Shown: positions 8,547-62,745 of the stretch, one piece after another | How positions within the stretch are numbered: position 1 is the stretch's first letter | Layout: each line of letters begins with the position of its first letter | DNA from: Eledone cirrhosa | Taxonomy: Eukaryota | DNA length: 64,000 nt | Assembly: GCA_964016885.1 (NCBI GenBank) | Contig: OZ024740.1 | Span: 413,106,001 to 413,170,000 of the forward strand | Reading direction: 5' to 3' | Position numbers and translations under genes: made by a program | The notes under the pieces: generated by a model | Databases searched by the model: none | Seen by the model: only the letters and a program-made list of their open reading frames with translations | Told to the model about the DNA's origin: nothing

Positions 8547-9494
8547 GACAGTAAGAGGAAAATATAAATAGGGGGAACGAGCGAGACAGTAAACAAACAT
8601 GCTACTCCCTCTCCTACTTCCTCCCGTTTGACCTGTGCGAGATTCTTTCCTCACTCACATTTCGACCAGGTCGGATGGTCTTTATTCTCTCTCGTCTACG
8701 ATTTCACAGAACTTATGTTCATCGATTTCAGGGACTTGACTCCTTCTTCCTCACTTTTCGTTGCATTACCATCTTTGTTTGTTTACTGTCTCGCTCGTTC
8801 CCCCTATTTACGTGTCCCAACGACTTTCTTTAGCCGTTGCTCGCACCAACCAGAGGTATATGGTATTTAAAGCGATGAAATACCAAGGAAGGCTGGAAGA
8901 TCACTGATGAAGGACTAAATTGATTCATATGTAACCCATTTGCAACCAGGCAGCACGCCATGTTTTCATATTTATTATATATATTTTCCTCCGCTGTCAT
9001 CCGTCTGTTTCTTTCTTACTGATTCCCCATTTCTCTGTATCTCTCACTTCCTTTTACCCCCTCTACCAGTCACTCTCTCTGTTAGCCTCTTCCTCACACT
9101 TTCACTCACTCACTCTCTGCTACTCCATCTCTTGCTTCCTCCCGTTTGACCTGTGCGAGATTCTTTCCTCACTCACACTTCGACCAGGTCGGATGGTCTT
9201 TATTCTCTCCCGTCTACGAATTCACAGAACTTATGTTCATCGATTTCAGGGACTTGACTCCTTCTTCCTCACTTTTCGTTGCATTACCATCTTTGTTTGT
9301 TTACTGTCTCGCTCGTTCCCCCTATTTACGTGTCCCAACGACTTTCTCTAGCCGTTGCTCGCACCAACCAGAGGTATATGGTCTTTAAAGCGATGAAATA
9401 CCAATGAAGGCTGGAAGATCACTGATGAAGGACTAAATTGATTCATATGTAACCCATTTGCAACCTCGCAGCACGCCATGTTTTCATATTTTTC

Positions 9495-9497
<3 letters not shown>
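8547..9497 (+). mobile_element. Non-coding 518-bp-unit element, ~1.7 head-to-tail copies with 5' inverted fragments (locus A)
   Basis: 8600-8972 repeats at 9118-9490 (offset 518). 8565-8599 is the reverse complement of ~8776-8810. Ends in (TA)n. Homologous to 27323-28357. Confidence 0.85.
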
Positions 9498-9689: not shown

Positions 9690-9951
9690 TGAGCACCCTT
9701 TGGTCACGAATTAACATGGGATTTGCACCCGGAAAGTTTCGCTCCTAGGTACAAGTCCAGCAGTCGCCCGTGCATACCAGCCTCCCCTGTCCACGCCACG
9801 GATGATGTCCGAGGGAAGGCAATAGCCGATACAACTTGGCGTCGCAAGCTATAATACAGTGTCTTGCTCAAGGACACAATGTATCTCCTGGTCCGAGAAT
9901 TGAACTCACAACCTTCCGATTGCAAGCGCAATCAATACTCTAACCACGCCA

Positions 9952-20199: not shown

Positions 20200-20340
20200 G
20201 ATATTAAATAAATGGAAACTATATTCATAAAACCATATTTATTCTATTATATATATTTCAGGAGTACCAAAACTTTGGTACGCAATCATCAGATAAAATA
20301 CAAAGATTGTTTTATAAATATTGACATAACCAGGAAGAAG
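20200..20340 (-). mobile_element. PLE-type terminal remnant with hammerhead-like motif (20248-20296); homologue of 58160-58325
   Basis: Minus strand reads CTGATGA-ttgc-gtaccaaa(gt)tttggtac-tcct-GAAA-tatata. Flanks match 58160-58325. Confidence 0.65.
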
Positions 20341-20764
20341 AACTTAACGGTTCAAGTTTTTCCTGCATACTAAAGGAAGAGAAAGAGAAGAAAAGTCAAA
20401 TATTTCAAATTATTAAGATGAGTATGCAAATGAGGTTGAGGTGTAGGGCTGAGAAAAACGTTATTTTTATACACTATGTAGATTTAAATAATTATTAGGA
20501 TATATATATCTGTGTGTGAGCAGAAGAACGAGAAAGAAAGAAGAGCTTGTATTTACGTTAATTTAAAAAGAATTAAGAGTTTGTAGAAATGGTGGAATAT
20601 GATTCCAGAATTAAAAAAAAAATTATTTAGCTATATTCTGAGTTATAATATTGTATATATAATCAATTAGACTATATGAAAAGTTATGGTTGTAAGTACA
20701 TTTAATCTTATTACATTACAACAGGTTGTAAGTATATATACCAACAAATTAAATATCTCTTCTG

Positions 20765-21028: not shown

Positions 21029-21182
21029 TTCATTATTTAACGATCGTTTCTAGGATATATATGTGTTAGAATTGGCATGCATATTCAACAGATCTATGTA
21101 CAAAATTATTCAAAATTATACAAACTATCAAGATTAAATATACATACCAACACATATATACGCCGTCTTCAGAAATAATGAA
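21029..21182 (-). ncRNA. Type I hammerhead ribozyme with extended stem II (left arm)
   Basis: Reverse-complement copy of 27078-27231. Confidence 0.75.
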
Positions 21183-21809
21183 ATATATTTATTGATAATA
21201 ACAACAATTCAAAATTTCAGGTCCGTTTGGGAACAAAATTGACCAATGAAAATACAAAAGGTTTAATGCAGTTCGGTGTGTGTATATACATGTAACTACC
21301 CTTACACATATTTTACAAAAATGTATGCTCAACTTGTATACGCATACCAAAAGGATGGATGCAAATACAAAATGTCAAGGTTAATGTCTCTGTAAGTTTA
21401 TAATGCACAGATAAGATGCGTATAGACACATAAATATGAAATAAGTGTATACACATAATCTCATACTCACACATATCCGTACAATCACACACACACGCGC
21501 GTATATGCATAAACATACACATAACTACGAACATACAAACACACACACACCCCCACTCACATATATATATGTGGATATAAAATCCTAAGCACATGGATAT
21601 TAATTCACTCACATAAACACTGGCACACACATTTAGATCAAGATACAGAAATTAGGTGGGAGGGGGGGAGAGGTCAGTATTCAACGGTTTGGGCAGACTG
21701 CTTAATATAGATGTATCTATAAACTAAGAAAATAAAAAATTATAAATAATAAATAAACATTAAAAAGGAAAGAAAAGAAAAAGAAAAAAGAAAAAAGAAA
21801 TATATCAAG

Positions 21810-21867
<58 letters not shown>

Positions 21868-21868
21868 C

Positions 21869-21899
<31 letters not shown>

Positions 21900-22009
21900 C
21901 AAACACATACATACATATACACACATCCACACTTAGAACATACATACACACACAAATATAAACATATACATATACACACATACATACATATACACACATA
22001 CATATAAAT

Positions 22010-22078
<69 letters not shown>

Positions 22079-22355
22079 TACACATATAATCACACATACT
22101 ATATAGACACACATATATATACACACATACACGCACATATACATACACTTACATACTTATATACATACAGATATACACATACATACCTATATATACACAC
22201 AAATACATACAGACATACATACATACATACAGACAAATACTTACGCATCCATATATCGGTATATACATACAAACACCACTACACTCTCACACAACTCAGA
22301 CATACAAAGAAAAAGGTATATACCTATACACATATACATATACAAATAGAGAAAC

Positions 22356-22424
<69 letters not shown>

Positions 22425-22618
22425 CACATATACACACATACACATACATACACATACATACATGTACACACACATAGATATATATACATACACACATACA
22501 CACATACATATATAGTCATACACACACATACACCTACACGAACATACACATACACATATATAAAGATATATATACACACACACACACACATACACACACA
22601 CACATATATATAAAATAA

Positions 22619-22665
<47 letters not shown>

Positions 22666-23234
22666 CATATACATACACACATACATAGACATATATGTAC
22701 ATACATACACATACATACATACATACACACACATACATACATATATATATACACACATAGACATATACATACATACACACACAACATACATACACACATA
22801 TATACTCATACATAGAATTAGATATATATTCATACATACATACGCACTTACATATACTCATATATACAAATACATACGCATCCATATATGCGTATATACA
22901 TAGAAACACCACTACACCCTCACCCAACTCAGACATACAAAGAATAAGGCATATACATATACATATATACACGCATTAATAGAGATATATATACACATAT
23001 ATATATATATATATATATACACATACACTTATATATATATACCCACACACACATACAACCATAAATACACATACAAACACCCACATATACATATATATAC
23101 ACACATATATATATACACACACATAAAAAACAGACATGCACATATATATTTTTTTACACATATATATACACATATATATACATATACTCACCCTCACATA
23201 TACACACATACACATAAGTTATATTATAATAATA

Positions 23235-23281
<47 letters not shown>

Positions 23282-23528
23282 CGAATATAGACATATATAC
23301 ACACATAGATATATATATATATATACACATACATATACACACACACATACACACGCTCACATATATATGTGTGTGCACACACACATATATACACATACAC
23401 ACATATACACATAAACACATATATGTGTATACATGCACACACACACATATATCCACATAGATACGAAGATAGACATATAAATAGAGAGACATACATATAT
23501 ATACACACACATATATACATACATACAT

Positions 23529-23589
<61 letters not shown>

Positions 23590-24658
23590 CACACATACAC
23601 ATACACATATATATACACATGCATATATACACATATATATATACATACCCACATATATATACACACACAATCTTACATTCTTATTTGCATGCGCATATAT
23701 GTATTTTTATATTCAGATATAAATACCCAAACATATATACACCTACCTACATATATATTCATACATACACGCTTACAAACACAGATGATAATAGTATGGG
23801 GGAAAGGGGGGGGTTGGAGAAGGGGATTATAGTAAATATATGTTTCAAGAAACATATATGTATGTATATGTATATGTATATGTATATGTGTATGTATATG
23901 TATATGTATATGTATTAATTTTGATTTCTATTTGCATATAATTATATTCTGCTATTGATAAAATACAATATCTGTTTTATTTATTATATACCTAATTAAC
24001 ATATACTATAGAAATAAATATATAATTTTTAATTTAGTTAACCTATAATTTATATTCTACTACCGATGTAATACTTTATTTGTTTTTTTCCCTATTACTA
24101 AATTCATTTCCTAATATTGATACCATAACGTTATTAACTTTAATTTAGTTATACTATAATTAATACTCTACTACTATTTAACTTCAAAATTCTGCTTCAA
24201 ATATTATAAACCTAACTAATTTACACCTTAGAAATCAATATGTTAACTATCTTTAGTTTAGTTAACATATAATTAATGGTATACTTATTTATTTTGAAAT
24301 GCATAAATTTTGCCTTATTTCTTATTTATTGTATTTCCAAACACTGAAACTATGTAAAAACATACATTGGATCCAGATACGGATAATATTCTATGTTTCT
24401 TGAAACATATATTTACTATAATCCCCTTCTCCAACCCCCCCCTTTCCCCCATACTATTATCATCTGTGTTTGTAAGCGTGTATGTATGAATATATATGTA
24501 GGTAGGTGTATATATGTTTGGGTATTTATATCTGAATATAAAAATACATATATGCGCATGCAAATAAGAATGTAAGATTGTGTGTGTATATATATGTGGG
24601 TATGTATATATATATGTGTATATATGCATGTGTATATATATGTGTATGTGTATGTGTG

Positions 24659-24713
<55 letters not shown>

Positions 24714-24960
24714 ATGTATGTATGTATATATGTGTGTGTATATATATGTATGTCTCTCTATTTATATGTCTATCTTCGTATCTATGTGGATATATGTGTG
24801 TGTGTGCATGTATACACATATATGTGTTTATGTGTATATGTGTGTATGTGTATATATGTGTGTGTGCACACACATATATATGTGAGCGTGTGTATGTGTG
24901 TGTGTATATGTATGTGTATATATATATATATATCTATGTGTGTATATATGTCTATATTCG

Positions 24961-25019
<59 letters not shown>

Positions 25020-25590
25020 TATTATTATAATATAACTTATGTGTATGTGTGTATATGTGAGCGTGAGTATATGTATATATATGTGTATATATATGTGTAA
25101 AAAAATATATATGTGCATGTCTGTTTTTTATGTGTGTGTATATATATATATGTGTGTATATATATGTATATGTGGGTGTTTGTATGTGTATTTATGGTTG
25201 TATGTGTGTGTGGGTATATATATATAAGTGTATGTGTATATATATATATATATATATATGTGTATATATATCTCTATTAATGCGTGTATATATGTATATG
25301 TATATGCCTTATTCTTTGTATGTCTGAGTTGGGTGAGGGTGTAGTGGTGTTTCTATGTATATACGCATATATGGATGCGTATGTATTTGTATATATGAGT
25401 ATATGTAAGTGCGTATGTATGTATGAATATATATCTAATTCTATGTATGAGTATATATGTGTGTATGTATGTTGTGTGTGTATGTATGTATATGTCTATG
25501 TGTGTATATATATATGTATGTATGTGTGTGTATGTATGTATGTATGTGTATGTATGTACATATATGTCTATGTATGTGTGTATGTATATG

Positions 25591-25639
<49 letters not shown>

Positions 25640-25836
25640 TTATTTTATATATATGTGTGTGTGTGTATGTGTGTGTGTGTGTGTATATATATCTTTATAT
25701 ATGTGTATGTGTATGTTCGTGTAGGTGTATGTGTGTGTATGACTATATATGTATGTGTGTATGTGTGTATGTATATATATATCTATGTGTGTGTACATGT
25801 ATGTATGTGTATGTATGTGTATGTGTGTATATGTGT

Positions 25837-25898
<62 letters not shown>

Positions 25899-26175
25899 GT
25901 TTCTCTATTTGTATATGTATATGTGTATAGGTATATACCTTTTTCTTTGTATGTCTGAGTTGTGTGAGAGTGTAGTGGTGTTTGTATGTATATACCGATA
26001 TATGGATGCGTAAGTATTTGTCTGTATGTATGTATGTATGTCTGTATGTATTTGTGTGTATATATAGGTATGTATGTGTATATCTGTATGTATATAAGTA
26101 TGTAAGTGTATGTATATGTGCGTGTATGTGTGTATATATATGTGTGTCTATATAGTATGTGTGATTATATGTGTA

Positions 26176-26234
<59 letters not shown>

Positions 26235-26342
26235 ATTTATATGTATGTGTGTATATGTATGTATGTGTGTATATGTATATGTTTATATATGTGTGTGTAT
26301 GTATGTTCTAAGTGTGGATGTGTGTATATGTATGTATGTGTT

Positions 26343-26373
<31 letters not shown>

Positions 26374-26376
26374 ATG

Positions 26377-26450
<74 letters not shown>

Positions 26451-27077
26451 CTTGATATATTTCTTTTTTCTTTTTTCTTTTTCTTTTCTTTCCTTTTTAA
26501 TGTTTATTTATTATTTATTATTTTTTATTTTCTTAGTTTATAGATACATCTATATTAAGCAGTCTGCCCAAACCGTTGAATACTGACCTCTCCCCCCCTC
26601 CCACCTAATTTCTGTATCTTGATCTAAATGTGTGTGCCAGTGTTTATGTGAGTGAATTAATATCCATGTGCTTAGGATTTTATATCCACATATATATATG
26701 TGAGTGGGGGTGTGTGTGTGTTTGTATGTTCGTAGTTATGTGTATGTTTATGCATATACGCGCGTGTGTGTGTGATTGTACGGATATGTGTGAGTATGAG
26801 ATTATGTGTATACACTTATTTCATATTTATTTGTCTATACGCATCTTATCTGTGCATTATAAACTTACAGAGACATTAACCTTGAAATTTTGTATTTGCA
26901 TCCATCCTTTTGGTATGCGTATACAAGTTGAGCATACATTTTTGTAAAATATGTGTAAGGGTAGTTACATGTATATACACACACCGAACTGCATTAAACC
27001 TTTTGTATTTTCATTGGTCAATTTTGTTCCCAAACGGACCTGAAATTTTGAATTGTTGTTATTATCAATAAATATAT

Positions 27078-27231
27078 TTCATTATTTCTGAAGACGGCGT
27101 ATATATGTGTTGGTATGTATATTTAATCTTGATAGTTTGTATAATTTTGTATAATTTTGTACATAGATCTGTTGAATATGCATGCCAATTCTAACACATA
27201 TATATCCTAGAAACGATCGTTAAATAATGAA
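27078..27231 (+). ncRNA. Type I hammerhead ribozyme with extended stem II (right arm)
   Basis: ttcattattt-CTGAAGA-[~115-nt hairpin]-GAAA-cgatc-GTT-aaataatgaa. Perfect 10-bp stem I and palindromic stem III aacgatcgtt. Confidence 0.78.
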
Positions 27232-27285: not shown

Positions 27286-27322
<37 letters not shown>

Positions 27323-27327
<5 letters not shown>

Positions 27328-28357
27328 AAAAAATGGGGAGAAGAATACTGCAGGTTGCACATGGATACCATGTAATAAAATAAGTCCCTCATCAGTGATT
27401 TGCCGACGATCATAGATATTTCATTGCATTAAAAATCATATACCTCACGTCGGTGCAATAATAATTAAATTAAGTTATTAGGACAATTAAAACGTGTAAA
27501 GCGAGTGAGACAAGATAACAACAAAGAGGAGAGCTAACCGTAGAAGGAAGGGAACAAGCTTCATAGTTATTCTGTTAGCATAAGCTAGGTGAATATATGA
27601 GCGCTTAGAAAAAAGACCTTTCGGGAACGAATCCAAATGTGAGAAAGAGAGAAAATGTTTTCGTCGCGAACGGGGTGAAGTGAGAAGAGGAGAAACAGTG
27701 AGTGAGTGAGTGGAAGTGTGAGAAAGAGTTAACTGACATGACAGAGGGGGCGAAAGAAAGTAGGAGAAACAGAGAGAACGAGGGAGCAGTAAGAGAGAGA
27801 GAGAGAGAAAAAAACAGAATCGCAGTTTAGGTAAATATATGTGAAAAAATGGGGAGAAGAATACTGCAGGTTGCACATGGATAACATGTAATAAAATAAG
27901 TCCCTCATCAGTGATTTGCCGACGATCATAGATATTTCATTGCATTAAAAATCATATACCTCACGTCGGTGCAATAATAATTAAATTAAGTTATTAGGAC
28001 AATTAAAACGCGTAAAGCGAGTGAGACAAGATAACAACAAAGAGGAGAGCTAACCGTAGAAGGAAGGGAACAAGCTTCATAGTTATTCTGTTAGCATAAG
28101 CTAGGTGAATATATGAGCGCTTAGAAAACAGACCTTTCGGGAACGAATCCAAATGTGAGAAAGAGAGAAAAGGTTTTCGTCGCGAACGGGGTGAAGTGAG
28201 AAGAGGAGAAACAGTGAGTGAGTGAGTGGAAGTGTGAGGAAGAGTTAACTGACATGACAGAGGGGGCGAAAGAAAGTAGGAGAAACAGAGAGAACGAGGG
28301 AGCAGTAAGAGAGAGAGAGAGAAAAAAACAGAATCGCAGTTTAGGTAAATATATGTG
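27323..28357 (-). mobile_element. Non-coding 516-bp-unit element, 2 head-to-tail copies (locus B)
   Basis: Offset 516 (27325 vs 27841) with near-identical units. The reverse complement aligns along its length with the locus A unit. The 3' end abuts (TA)n. Confidence 0.88.
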
Positions 28358-30177: not shown

Positions 30178-30210
30178 GTCGACGTTTCGGGCATAATCCC
30201 TTCTTCAGGC
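30178..30210 (-). ncRNA. Minimal hammerhead ribozyme (PLE-2 3' pLTR)
   Basis: CTGAAGA-a-ggg(attatg)ccc-GAAA-c-GTC with palindromic acgt. Stem I is weak. Confidence 0.75.
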
Positions 30211-58047: not shown

Positions 58048-58221
58048 TTATATATATATAAATATATTAATTCAAAATATTAACAAAAATAGACATTCGT
58101 GTGTTCAAGTATATTTTATTATACATATTTCAGATAAGAGACTCCAACCGCGAAGGTTGCATTTTTTTCTGGGTATGTCAATATTTATATATTTATTTAT
58201 AAAACTAATCTATATTATATT

Positions 58222-58276
58222 TTATCTGATGAAAGCGCACCATAATCTGCTTTGGTGGCCCTTGAAATATGTATAA
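58222..58276 (+). ncRNA. Hammerhead-like motif in PLE-type terminal remnant
   Basis: CTGATGA-aag.g.cacca(...)tggtg.c.ctt-GAAA-tat-GTA. Stem I is poor. Homologous to 20248-20296. Confidence 0.6.
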
Positions 58277-62706: not shown

Positions 62707-62745
62707 TGAACCTGAAGATTGCGAAAGCATGAAAGTACTTGTCCA
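62707..62745 (+). ncRNA. Minimal hammerhead (inverted pLTR copy of PLE-3)
   Basis: Same motif with one stem I substitution (gtcca). Confidence 0.72.

Follow-up and report, generated by a model that had tools for sequence, protein, structure and literature searches.

A probable self-cutting hammerhead motif in S-G-C order within a retrozyme-like repeat of Eledone cirrhosa

A CUGAUGA sequence directly preceded by a helix lies at positions 9422-9428 of the window analysed here, a stretch of 64,000 nucleotides from the genome of Eledone cirrhosa, and it raises the question of whether the surrounding strands make up a hammerhead at all, and whether an RNA with this layout would cut itself. The motif that contains it (9332-9433, plus strand) presents the cut-site block, the GAAA block and the CUGAUGA block in this chain order, here called S-G-C, and not in one of the circular orders CGS, GSC and SCG that characterize types I, II and III and are free of crossing stems. 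The explanation that we consider best overall, and probable, is a self-cutting S-G-C hammerhead carried by a retrozyme-like passenger repeat of Penelope-like elements (PLEs). In the accessible literature, non-circularly permuted hammerheads have so far come from environmental sequence and one doubtful bacterial case, with no host or role; the Eledone motif would be a permuted hammerhead borne by a young mobile repeat of an animal, with a copy number above 6,500.

The carrier repeat and its insertions

The genome around the window comprises 3.0 Gb and has abundant (TA)n. The family A carrier insertion (8565-9495, plus strand) consists of a 35-bp inverted 5' piece (8565-8599), a 5'-truncated unit and a full 518-bp unit, the latter two spanning 8600-9495 and being followed by (TA)n. 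The focal motif sits in the 3' part of the 518-bp unit, and an upstream tandem copy, 518 bp away at 8814-8915 (plus strand), has a mismatch in stem I and an altered k-turn bulge. The family B insertion on the minus strand (27320-28350, ends approximate) holds two tandem 516-bp units between (TA)n runs, with one motif copy at 27900-28000 (C3 at 27911, H17 at 27955) and a second 516 bp downstream at 27384-27484 (C3 at 27395, H17 at 27439). The unit length of 517 bp given in the preliminary description does not hold, the unit having 518 bp in locus A and 516 bp in locus B. The two carriers are about 67-71% identical, and the identity of the motif (73 of 103 columns) is only modestly higher than that outside it (274 of 432). 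No credible open reading frame (ORF) was found in the carrier units. A separate element at 9690-9950 (minus strand), with a (TA)n run on either side, has the look of a tRNA-derived SINE and may resemble cephalopod SINEs.

Two DNA searches of the genome returned 2,344 and 638 candidates, the best 40 of each being 97-100% identical. Aligned pieces reach 1,542 bp, that is, up to three units, and one head-to-tail array comprises at least 11 matches at steps of about 520 bp. The 5' ends of copies are scattered, inverted 5' pieces are present, and the 3' ends fall +123/124 from the predicted cut in 72 of 134 aligned pieces and +73 in a further 22. In tandem or inverted 5'-truncated copies, a tail and a microsatellite target, the carrier insertions fit the hallmarks of PLEs. 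Their two 3' end classes lie about 50 nt apart, and the published PLE tail measures 30-40 bp in the accessible part of PMC8557442. The length of the tandem unit varies from 505 to 637 bp across copies; a subfamily of 630-637 bp (L062, L075 and L080) arose when about 120 bp inside the unit were duplicated.

Predicted core, split stem II and k-turn

Three blocks on the plus strand supply the predicted core of the focal copy. Block S (9373-9378) contains the stem III 5' strand GGTAT, with U16.1 at 9377 and H17 at A9378, and the cut is predicted between 9378 and 9379. It is followed by the 5' strand of stem I (9379-9385, pairing with 9415-9421) and by block G (9394-9402), which comprises U11.1 (9394), G12-A13-A14-A15.1 (9395-9398) and the stem III 3' strand. 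Block C (9415-9429) consists of the stem I 3' strand, CUGAUGA from C3 to A9 (9422-9428) and A10.1 (9429). The hammerhead core bases CUGANGA, GAAA and UH are therefore all found, at 9422-9428, 9395-9398 and 9377-9378, respectively. Both flanking helices are in hammerhead register: stem III (9373-9377/9398-9402) opens with the A15.1-U16.1 pair, and stem I (9379-9384/9416-9421) begins at 1.1-2.1.

Much of what the preliminary description had noticed is recovered in this layout. The helix that it reported directly 5' of CUGAUGA is present at locus A (9379-9385 with 9415-9421) and, on the minus strand, before 27911 and 27395 at locus B; of the compensatory changes that it saw between the loci, one is two-sided (C-G to U-A) and the other only one-sided (G-U to A-U). 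The conserved GAGGTATA with the triplet AUA (H17 = A9378), the complementarity of GAAATA(C/T)C to GGTAT and that of GTCC (9332-9335) to GGAC (9430-9433) all hold, and the cut that it placed after gaggtata is identical to the site predicted here (A9378). Its idea of a non-canonical hammerhead likewise finds support in the letters, with the core in exact register but in S-G-C order.

A descriptor of the S-G-C layout with stems I and III of 4 bp each matches only the four motif copies in the window, and the same descriptor gave a mean of 0.02 matches on 150 shuffles, 3 of which had one match. Position 17 is a non-G base in all 100 distinct copies of a set of 49 A, 30 B and 21 C copies, from which 5'-truncated copies starting in TA/TG runs and two chance matches (L127 and L129) had been removed. 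Nested folding energies are not better than those of shuffles (z -0.68, -0.34 and +0.27), and nested folding pairs the stem III loop differently from the S-G-C model; unremarkable energies are what would be expected of a fold in which most helices cross. As judged from sequence, 9332-9433 is very probably a complete hammerhead core in non-circular S-G-C order and a real fold, and there is a good probability that it would cut itself.

Stem II in this motif would be split. Its sole contiguous pair is 10.1-11.1 (A9429-U9394), paired in 95 of the 100 distinct copies as U-A, U-G or C-G, in keeping with R10.1-Y11.1, and no contiguous multi-pair stem II between blocks C and G was found in the focal motif. 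After nucleotide 10.1 follows the outer helix H2, in which GTCC (9332-9335) pairs with GGAC (9430-9433); it is paired in 94.6% of cells in 14 A/B rows, with zero two-sided changes, and takes a six-pair form in family C. The distal part of stem II would be provided by an upstream strand in H4, where TCGC (9359-9362) pairs with GCGA (9390-9393, positions 11.2-11.5). The register of H4 is identical in families A, B and C, and it is the weakest helix, with 77.6% of cells paired over five columns, the fifth of which is often unpaired in family A, and 68 of 105 cells paired in the older family C. Between these strands stands the hairpin P2 (9336-9357), an optional arm of the junction with two-sided changes in 5 of 7 pairs; it is absent from family C, which has two bases in its place, and the junction around the one-pair stem II is accordingly four-way in families A and B and three-way in family C. 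No tested precedent for a one-pair stem II beside a junction was found in the literature searched. A strict canonical hammerhead descriptor has 0 matches in the window, missing even canonical-looking motifs at 30208 and 34635, and an any-order descriptor with a contiguous 3-bp stem II, which has many chance matches in AT-rich DNA, has none at the four motif sites.

Stem III carries a k-turn consensus, with 9370-9372 (3n, G2n and A1n) as the non-bulged strand and 9403-9408 (a 3-nt bulge, G1b, A2b and 3b) as the bulged strand. The standard sequence pattern is present, in which a 3-nt bulge and then tandem G-A and A-G pairs separate two helices, as k-turns are defined in the accessible part of PMC5689011. 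G1b and A2b are found in 100 of 100 copies, G2n in 99 and A1n in 98. Beyond the k-turn, the six-pair NC helix joins CCAACC (9364-9369) to 9409-9414; it is paired in 89% of cells, with two-sided changes in 5 of 6 pairs, and its one A-C mismatch in the focal copy is restored to a pair by T at 9411 in about 89% of DNA-contig depth. Like the standard k-turns Kt-7 and box C/D, as given in the accessible part of PMC5689011, the motif has C:G at -1b:-1n in families A and B and U:U at 3b:3n in families B and C; unlike them, it is placed in a hammerhead stem III, and the focal 3b:3n is A-A.

Linkers of 0-4 nt connect the NC helix, H4 and stem I at their far ends, that from stem I to H4 being 4 nt in 92 of 100 copies and that from NC to stem I being 1 nt in most copies. 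An RNA with this consensus would probably kink, and stem III, bent back in this way, would bring the distal ends of all three hammerhead stems together. The resulting three-helix cage would stand in for the usual contact between loop I and loop II. This combination of a split stem II and a k-turn offers a testable new way of organising a hammerhead core.

Conservation across copies and competing explanations

In the genome, a gapped pattern that spans the complete motif is matched exactly 6,529 times and one for the S and G parts 7,296 times, with 0 matches for the control in each case. Family C was found with a pattern that fixes only stem III, the GA letters of the k-turn and the core (18 matches, control 0), and its helices outside the pattern keep their register, with 112 of 126 cells paired in stem I and 106 of 126 in the NC helix, the outer helix doing so too. 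Three families in Eledone cirrhosa, A, B and C, keep the layout. Because the search patterns fixed the letters of stem III and the core, the conservation of these parts within families is partly circular. DNA contigs, which come from three runs of one sample and were not selected by a motif pattern, show variation of at least 10% within 9349-9439 only at 9370 (3n), 9408 (3b) and 9411, and at no core base.

Covariation over many copies, which the preliminary description had proposed as a check, was assessed in an alignment (A2) of 59 distinct, gap-free 72-nt copies, other lengths and a copy with a deletion (L071) having been left out; a different alignment, A1, includes one truncated row (L080). 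In these 59 copies, 90.2% of cells are paired, compared with 72.2% after shuffling and 25-47% with partners slid, and 19 of 23 pairs show two-sided changes. Stem I is paired in 94.1% of cells, with two-sided changes in 4 of 6 pairs, and stem III in 99.0%, with two-sided changes also present. The number of pairs with a two-sided change is not above that of shuffles (94/500), and the two-sided changes trace to about three to six events at the level of subfamilies, not to 59 independent ones. As a pattern in the alignment, the covariation is strong, yet it is no statistical proof.

Several other explanations have to be weighed against a hammerhead that works as a monomer. The type II model of the preliminary description, in which GTCC/GGAC is stem II, ACTT/AGGT is stem III and AACGA/AATAA replaces GAAA, or else the motif is a decayed relic, appears highly improbable. 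The letters AACGA/AATAA form the 5' arm of the covarying hairpin P2, and the GAAA within the stem I loop is the G12-A15.1 strand, which forms stem III in register; this GAAA is the working strand, and a type II model is unneeded. GTCC/GGAC does form in the nested fold, and ACTT/AGGT is compatible in 53 of 54 cells and could act as an alternative 'off' pairing; however, it shows no two-sided change, its duplex has an energy of +0.1 kcal/mol, it would exclude P2 and stem III, and it has no counterpart in family C, which lacks these letters yet keeps the S-G-C layout. The nested type II model reaches -3.8 kcal/mol, versus -12.4 kcal/mol for H2, P2, NC and stem III together, and it provides no A15.1-U16.1 pair at the cut triplet. 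Decay is at odds with a core that does not vary by 10% or more at any position in the DNA contigs and is kept in three families. Chance complementarity in an amplified repeat, to which the non-significant folding z-scores and the small number of independent lineages lend some colour, deserves very little credence: six helices hold their register across three families and the tails of the PLE group Naiads, as given in the accessible part of PMC8557442, with differing letters, the shuffles yield a mean of only 0.02 matches, and the pairing in the 59 copies largely refutes it.

Two further explanations accept the pairing and assign it another role. One is that the same strands act only between two tandem units or two molecules, so that a dimer would restore a non-crossing order, and this seems to us quite unlikely. 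Luense and colleagues are said to have reported dimer action for minimal PLE hammerheads in 2017, copies are often tandem, and covariation does not distinguish pairs in cis from those in trans. A monomer requires two pseudoknots and a tight three-helix cage; the near-fixed linker lengths are nevertheless what would be expected of a compact monomer, stem III is not palindromic, the layout does not need a dimer, and published SGC ribozymes cleave with the four predicted stems, according to the accessible text of PMC10085705. The other is that the fold is real and is no longer catalytic, or is so only with protein, the k-turn and junction being a scaffold that positions priming at the 3' tail and is bound by a Penelope-like reverse transcriptase or an L7Ae-family protein. 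This, too, is unlikely, even though the k-turn is conserved as well as the core is, and the U-U at 3b-3n in families B and C is of the box C/D type, which can require a protein in order to fold (PMC5689011, accessible part). A weak Rfam match to snR66 (E 0.41, far below the cut-off) also covers the k-turn letters, and was rejected as a snoRNA because CUGA falls outside the terminal helix. It would also fit elements that end 73-124 nt beyond the site, where 5' ends show no enrichment, although a circle or an uncut last copy accounts for such ends too. The retention of the core bases, of a non-G at position 17 (100 of 100) and of U16.1-A15.1 across families with different helices argues against a mere scaffold.

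Relatives and a possible route of spread

The monomeric S-G-C hammerhead that we prefer has its closest published counterpart in the type-SGC hammerheads HRIMA-1 and variants, for which cleavage rates of 0.007-0.19 per minute have been shown (Eckert et al., 2023; PMC10085705). According to the accessible text of that paper, S-G-C is a validated ribozyme topology, its RNAs cleave with the predicted four stems, and its examples come from metatranscriptomes, none being from the genome of a known organism; the words k-turn and kink do not occur in its main text. The focal motif shares with type SGC (PMC10085705, as accessible) the block order, all core bases, the crossing stems I and III and the short linker that leads from stem I into the strand of stem II. 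However, type SGC has a contiguous stem II, whereas the focal motif has one pair and a junction with an upstream strand, and it also differs in its stem III k-turn and its thousands of copies in an animal retroelement. The helix that joins the far sides of stems I and II in the accessible description of type SGC was not identified in the motif, where linkers of 0-4 nt stand instead. The motif would work like type SGC but fails one defining feature, a contiguous stem II. Rfam hammerhead models, another check proposed in the preliminary description, gave no match in 8560-9490: no hammerhead appears among the 3 Rfam matches there, nor among the 150 listed of 201 matches in the window. A literature search that covered few subscription papers found no permuted hammerhead in an animal retroelement; in their accessible parts, a 2026 retrozyme preprint (Li et al., 10.64898/2026.07.22.740005) deals with type I motifs alone, and a single sentence of a virus paper from 2026 cites hammerhead permutations.

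Naiads (Craig et al., 2021; PMC8557442) use a (TA)n target, and the accessible text reports that they lack canonical hammerheads; eight Naiad families are flagged HHR_half_core there, the other half of the core lying 35-50 nt away, to one side or the other. The Naiad consensus sequences in the accessible supplement were read by eye around core motifs, covering 60 of 62 CTGATGA places, 19 of which (places 26-44) are in the Naiad nucleotide part. Eight of the 19 (26, 28-31, 37, 40 and 41) show an SGC-like layout in which an upstream strand pairs before GAAA; three of the eight are near-identical, two belong to octopus records, and stem I amounts to only two pairs at place 26. Places 34 and 35 have a CSG order with full stems I-III, and nine of the 19 lie in ORFs or were left unparsed. 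Three other core variants yielded 3 CSG cases among the 30 inspected of 91 places. To our knowledge, type CSG has been published from only two metagenome sequences. CSG with full stems occurs at at least 5 Naiad places in the accessible supplement of PMC8557442, three of them just before nematode record headers.

In the accessible records, the tails of octopus Naiads have the helix set and the k-turn in common with the Eledone element, with different letters in every helix (PMC8557442). Naiads are also like the carrier in their tandem and inverted copies, their tail and (TA)n; unlike them, the carrier has no ORF. All eight SGC-like Naiad places have an opened core, in which the partner of position 11.1 lies in the upstream strand and is not the base that follows A9, whereas families A, B and C keep R10.1-Y11.1. 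The alternative, Naiad-type pair holds in 0 of 49 A copies, in 26 of 30 B copies, in which the base concerned closes P2 as well, and in 3 of 21 C copies.

No autonomous element joined to the motif was found in 8 regions and 20 regions upstream of family C copies. Nor was a Naiad ORF, which has an N-terminal GIY-YIG, CxC and a reverse transcriptase, found joined to it among 45 GIY-YIG loci, where every endonuclease motif read was of the C-terminal type. Motif pairs 2.9-9 kb apart were considered as ends of an autonomous element and discarded as separate insertions, (TA)n lying between them in both pairs read; the ORFs beside such pairs are presumably Neptune- or Nematis-like. A 30-base Naiad-tail pattern has 0 matches in the genome, and a looser one has 5, of which 3 are of the family C type and 2 are chance matches (L127 and L129). 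Four 12-14-base motifs of the Eledone element have no match in the accessible Naiad supplement. Because no Naiad ORF was found joined to the motif, the case for a Naiad origin of the carrier consists of shared architecture and target, on which grounds we consider this origin likely.

If the S-G-C reading is true, it would explain directly why Naiads seem to have no hammerheads, and also why searches by descriptor overlooked them. We lean slightly towards a wider proposal, that active, non-circularly permuted hammerheads are found across the whole Naiad clade and in its non-coding passengers, with CSG and full stems in nematodes and, elsewhere, S-G-C order, a stem II made by a fourth strand and a cage closed by the k-turn. 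Under this proposal, the fourth strand would enter at the core in Naiad tails or one pair outside it in Eledone, and cleavage may, owing to the k-turn, require an L7Ae-family protein of the host. The hammerhead architecture would then be new, the ribozymes would be the first permuted ones in animal genomes, and the retrozymes would form a class that escapes standard searches.

Penelope-like retroelements, likely related to Naiads, probably spread the repeat as a retrozyme-like passenger, along the lines of the retrozyme model (Cervera and de la Pena, 2020; PMC7229834, accessible part). Tandem transcripts would be cut into monomers of about 518 nt, which would then be circularised. A Penelope-like reverse transcriptase would prime at (TA)n about 120 nt past the cut and run round the circle, and such copying would yield head-to-tail arrays whose 3' end is fixed and whose 5' ends are ragged or inverted. 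For the carrier, circle-based spread has, in our estimation, somewhat better than an even chance. In the accessible parts of PMC7229834 and 10.64898/2026.07.22.740005, metazoan non-LTR retrozymes are, like the carrier, non-coding, head-to-tail repeats of low GC content with one hammerhead per unit and thousands of copies, and they sit beside autonomous PLEs. They differ in having type I hammerheads and units of 150-450 bp, in contrast to the S-G-C order and units of 505-637 bp in the carrier. Retrozymes of this kind are expressed as monomers, both linear and circular.

Joins of 5' ends to (TA)n show no enrichment where the cut is predicted, with 129 of 7,425 (1.7%) compared with 9 of 570 (1.6%) at the single control site in a genome-wide test of family B only, and a smaller sample has a 5' end at the cut in 2 of about 19 places. 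Genomic ends bear no footprint of cutting because copies end 73-124 nt past the cut, and a circular template would also give no enrichment, so that the test neither supports nor refutes cleavage, although one line of evidence that might have favoured it falls away. Starts at zero offset among the aligned pieces were discarded as a footprint, being mostly artefacts of query edges. About 8 of the 19 (TA)n-joined 5' ends lie 8-10 nt after the predicted cut, several of them in one subfamily; some carry A or C at 11.1, and either microhomology or a distinct short element may be involved.

Other hammerhead-like motifs occur in the window. Those at 30208 and 34635 (minus strand), about 4.4 kb apart, are canonical-looking type I Penelope hammerheads (CTGAAGA ... 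GAAAC) and flank ORF pieces of 232-359 aa, which suggests a Penelope-like element with pseudo-LTRs. Type III hammerhead motifs have been described mostly from plants, and a repeat family with a type III-like S-C-G order is seen at 58150-58270 (plus strand, C3 58226) and 20250-20370 (minus strand, C3 20292), as well as outside the window at L123 477 (plus) and 975 (minus) and L149 2308 (plus); its stems look weak and AT-rich. The window also contains a 22-kb satellite (35356-57382) of 688 copies of a 32-bp unit with strong strand skew. In addition, a large inverted repeat extends over about 21100-27150, with identical context at 27088 (plus) and 21172 (minus) and mirrored microsatellite tracts between them, and a second inverted pair stands at 62712 (plus) and 59581 (minus).
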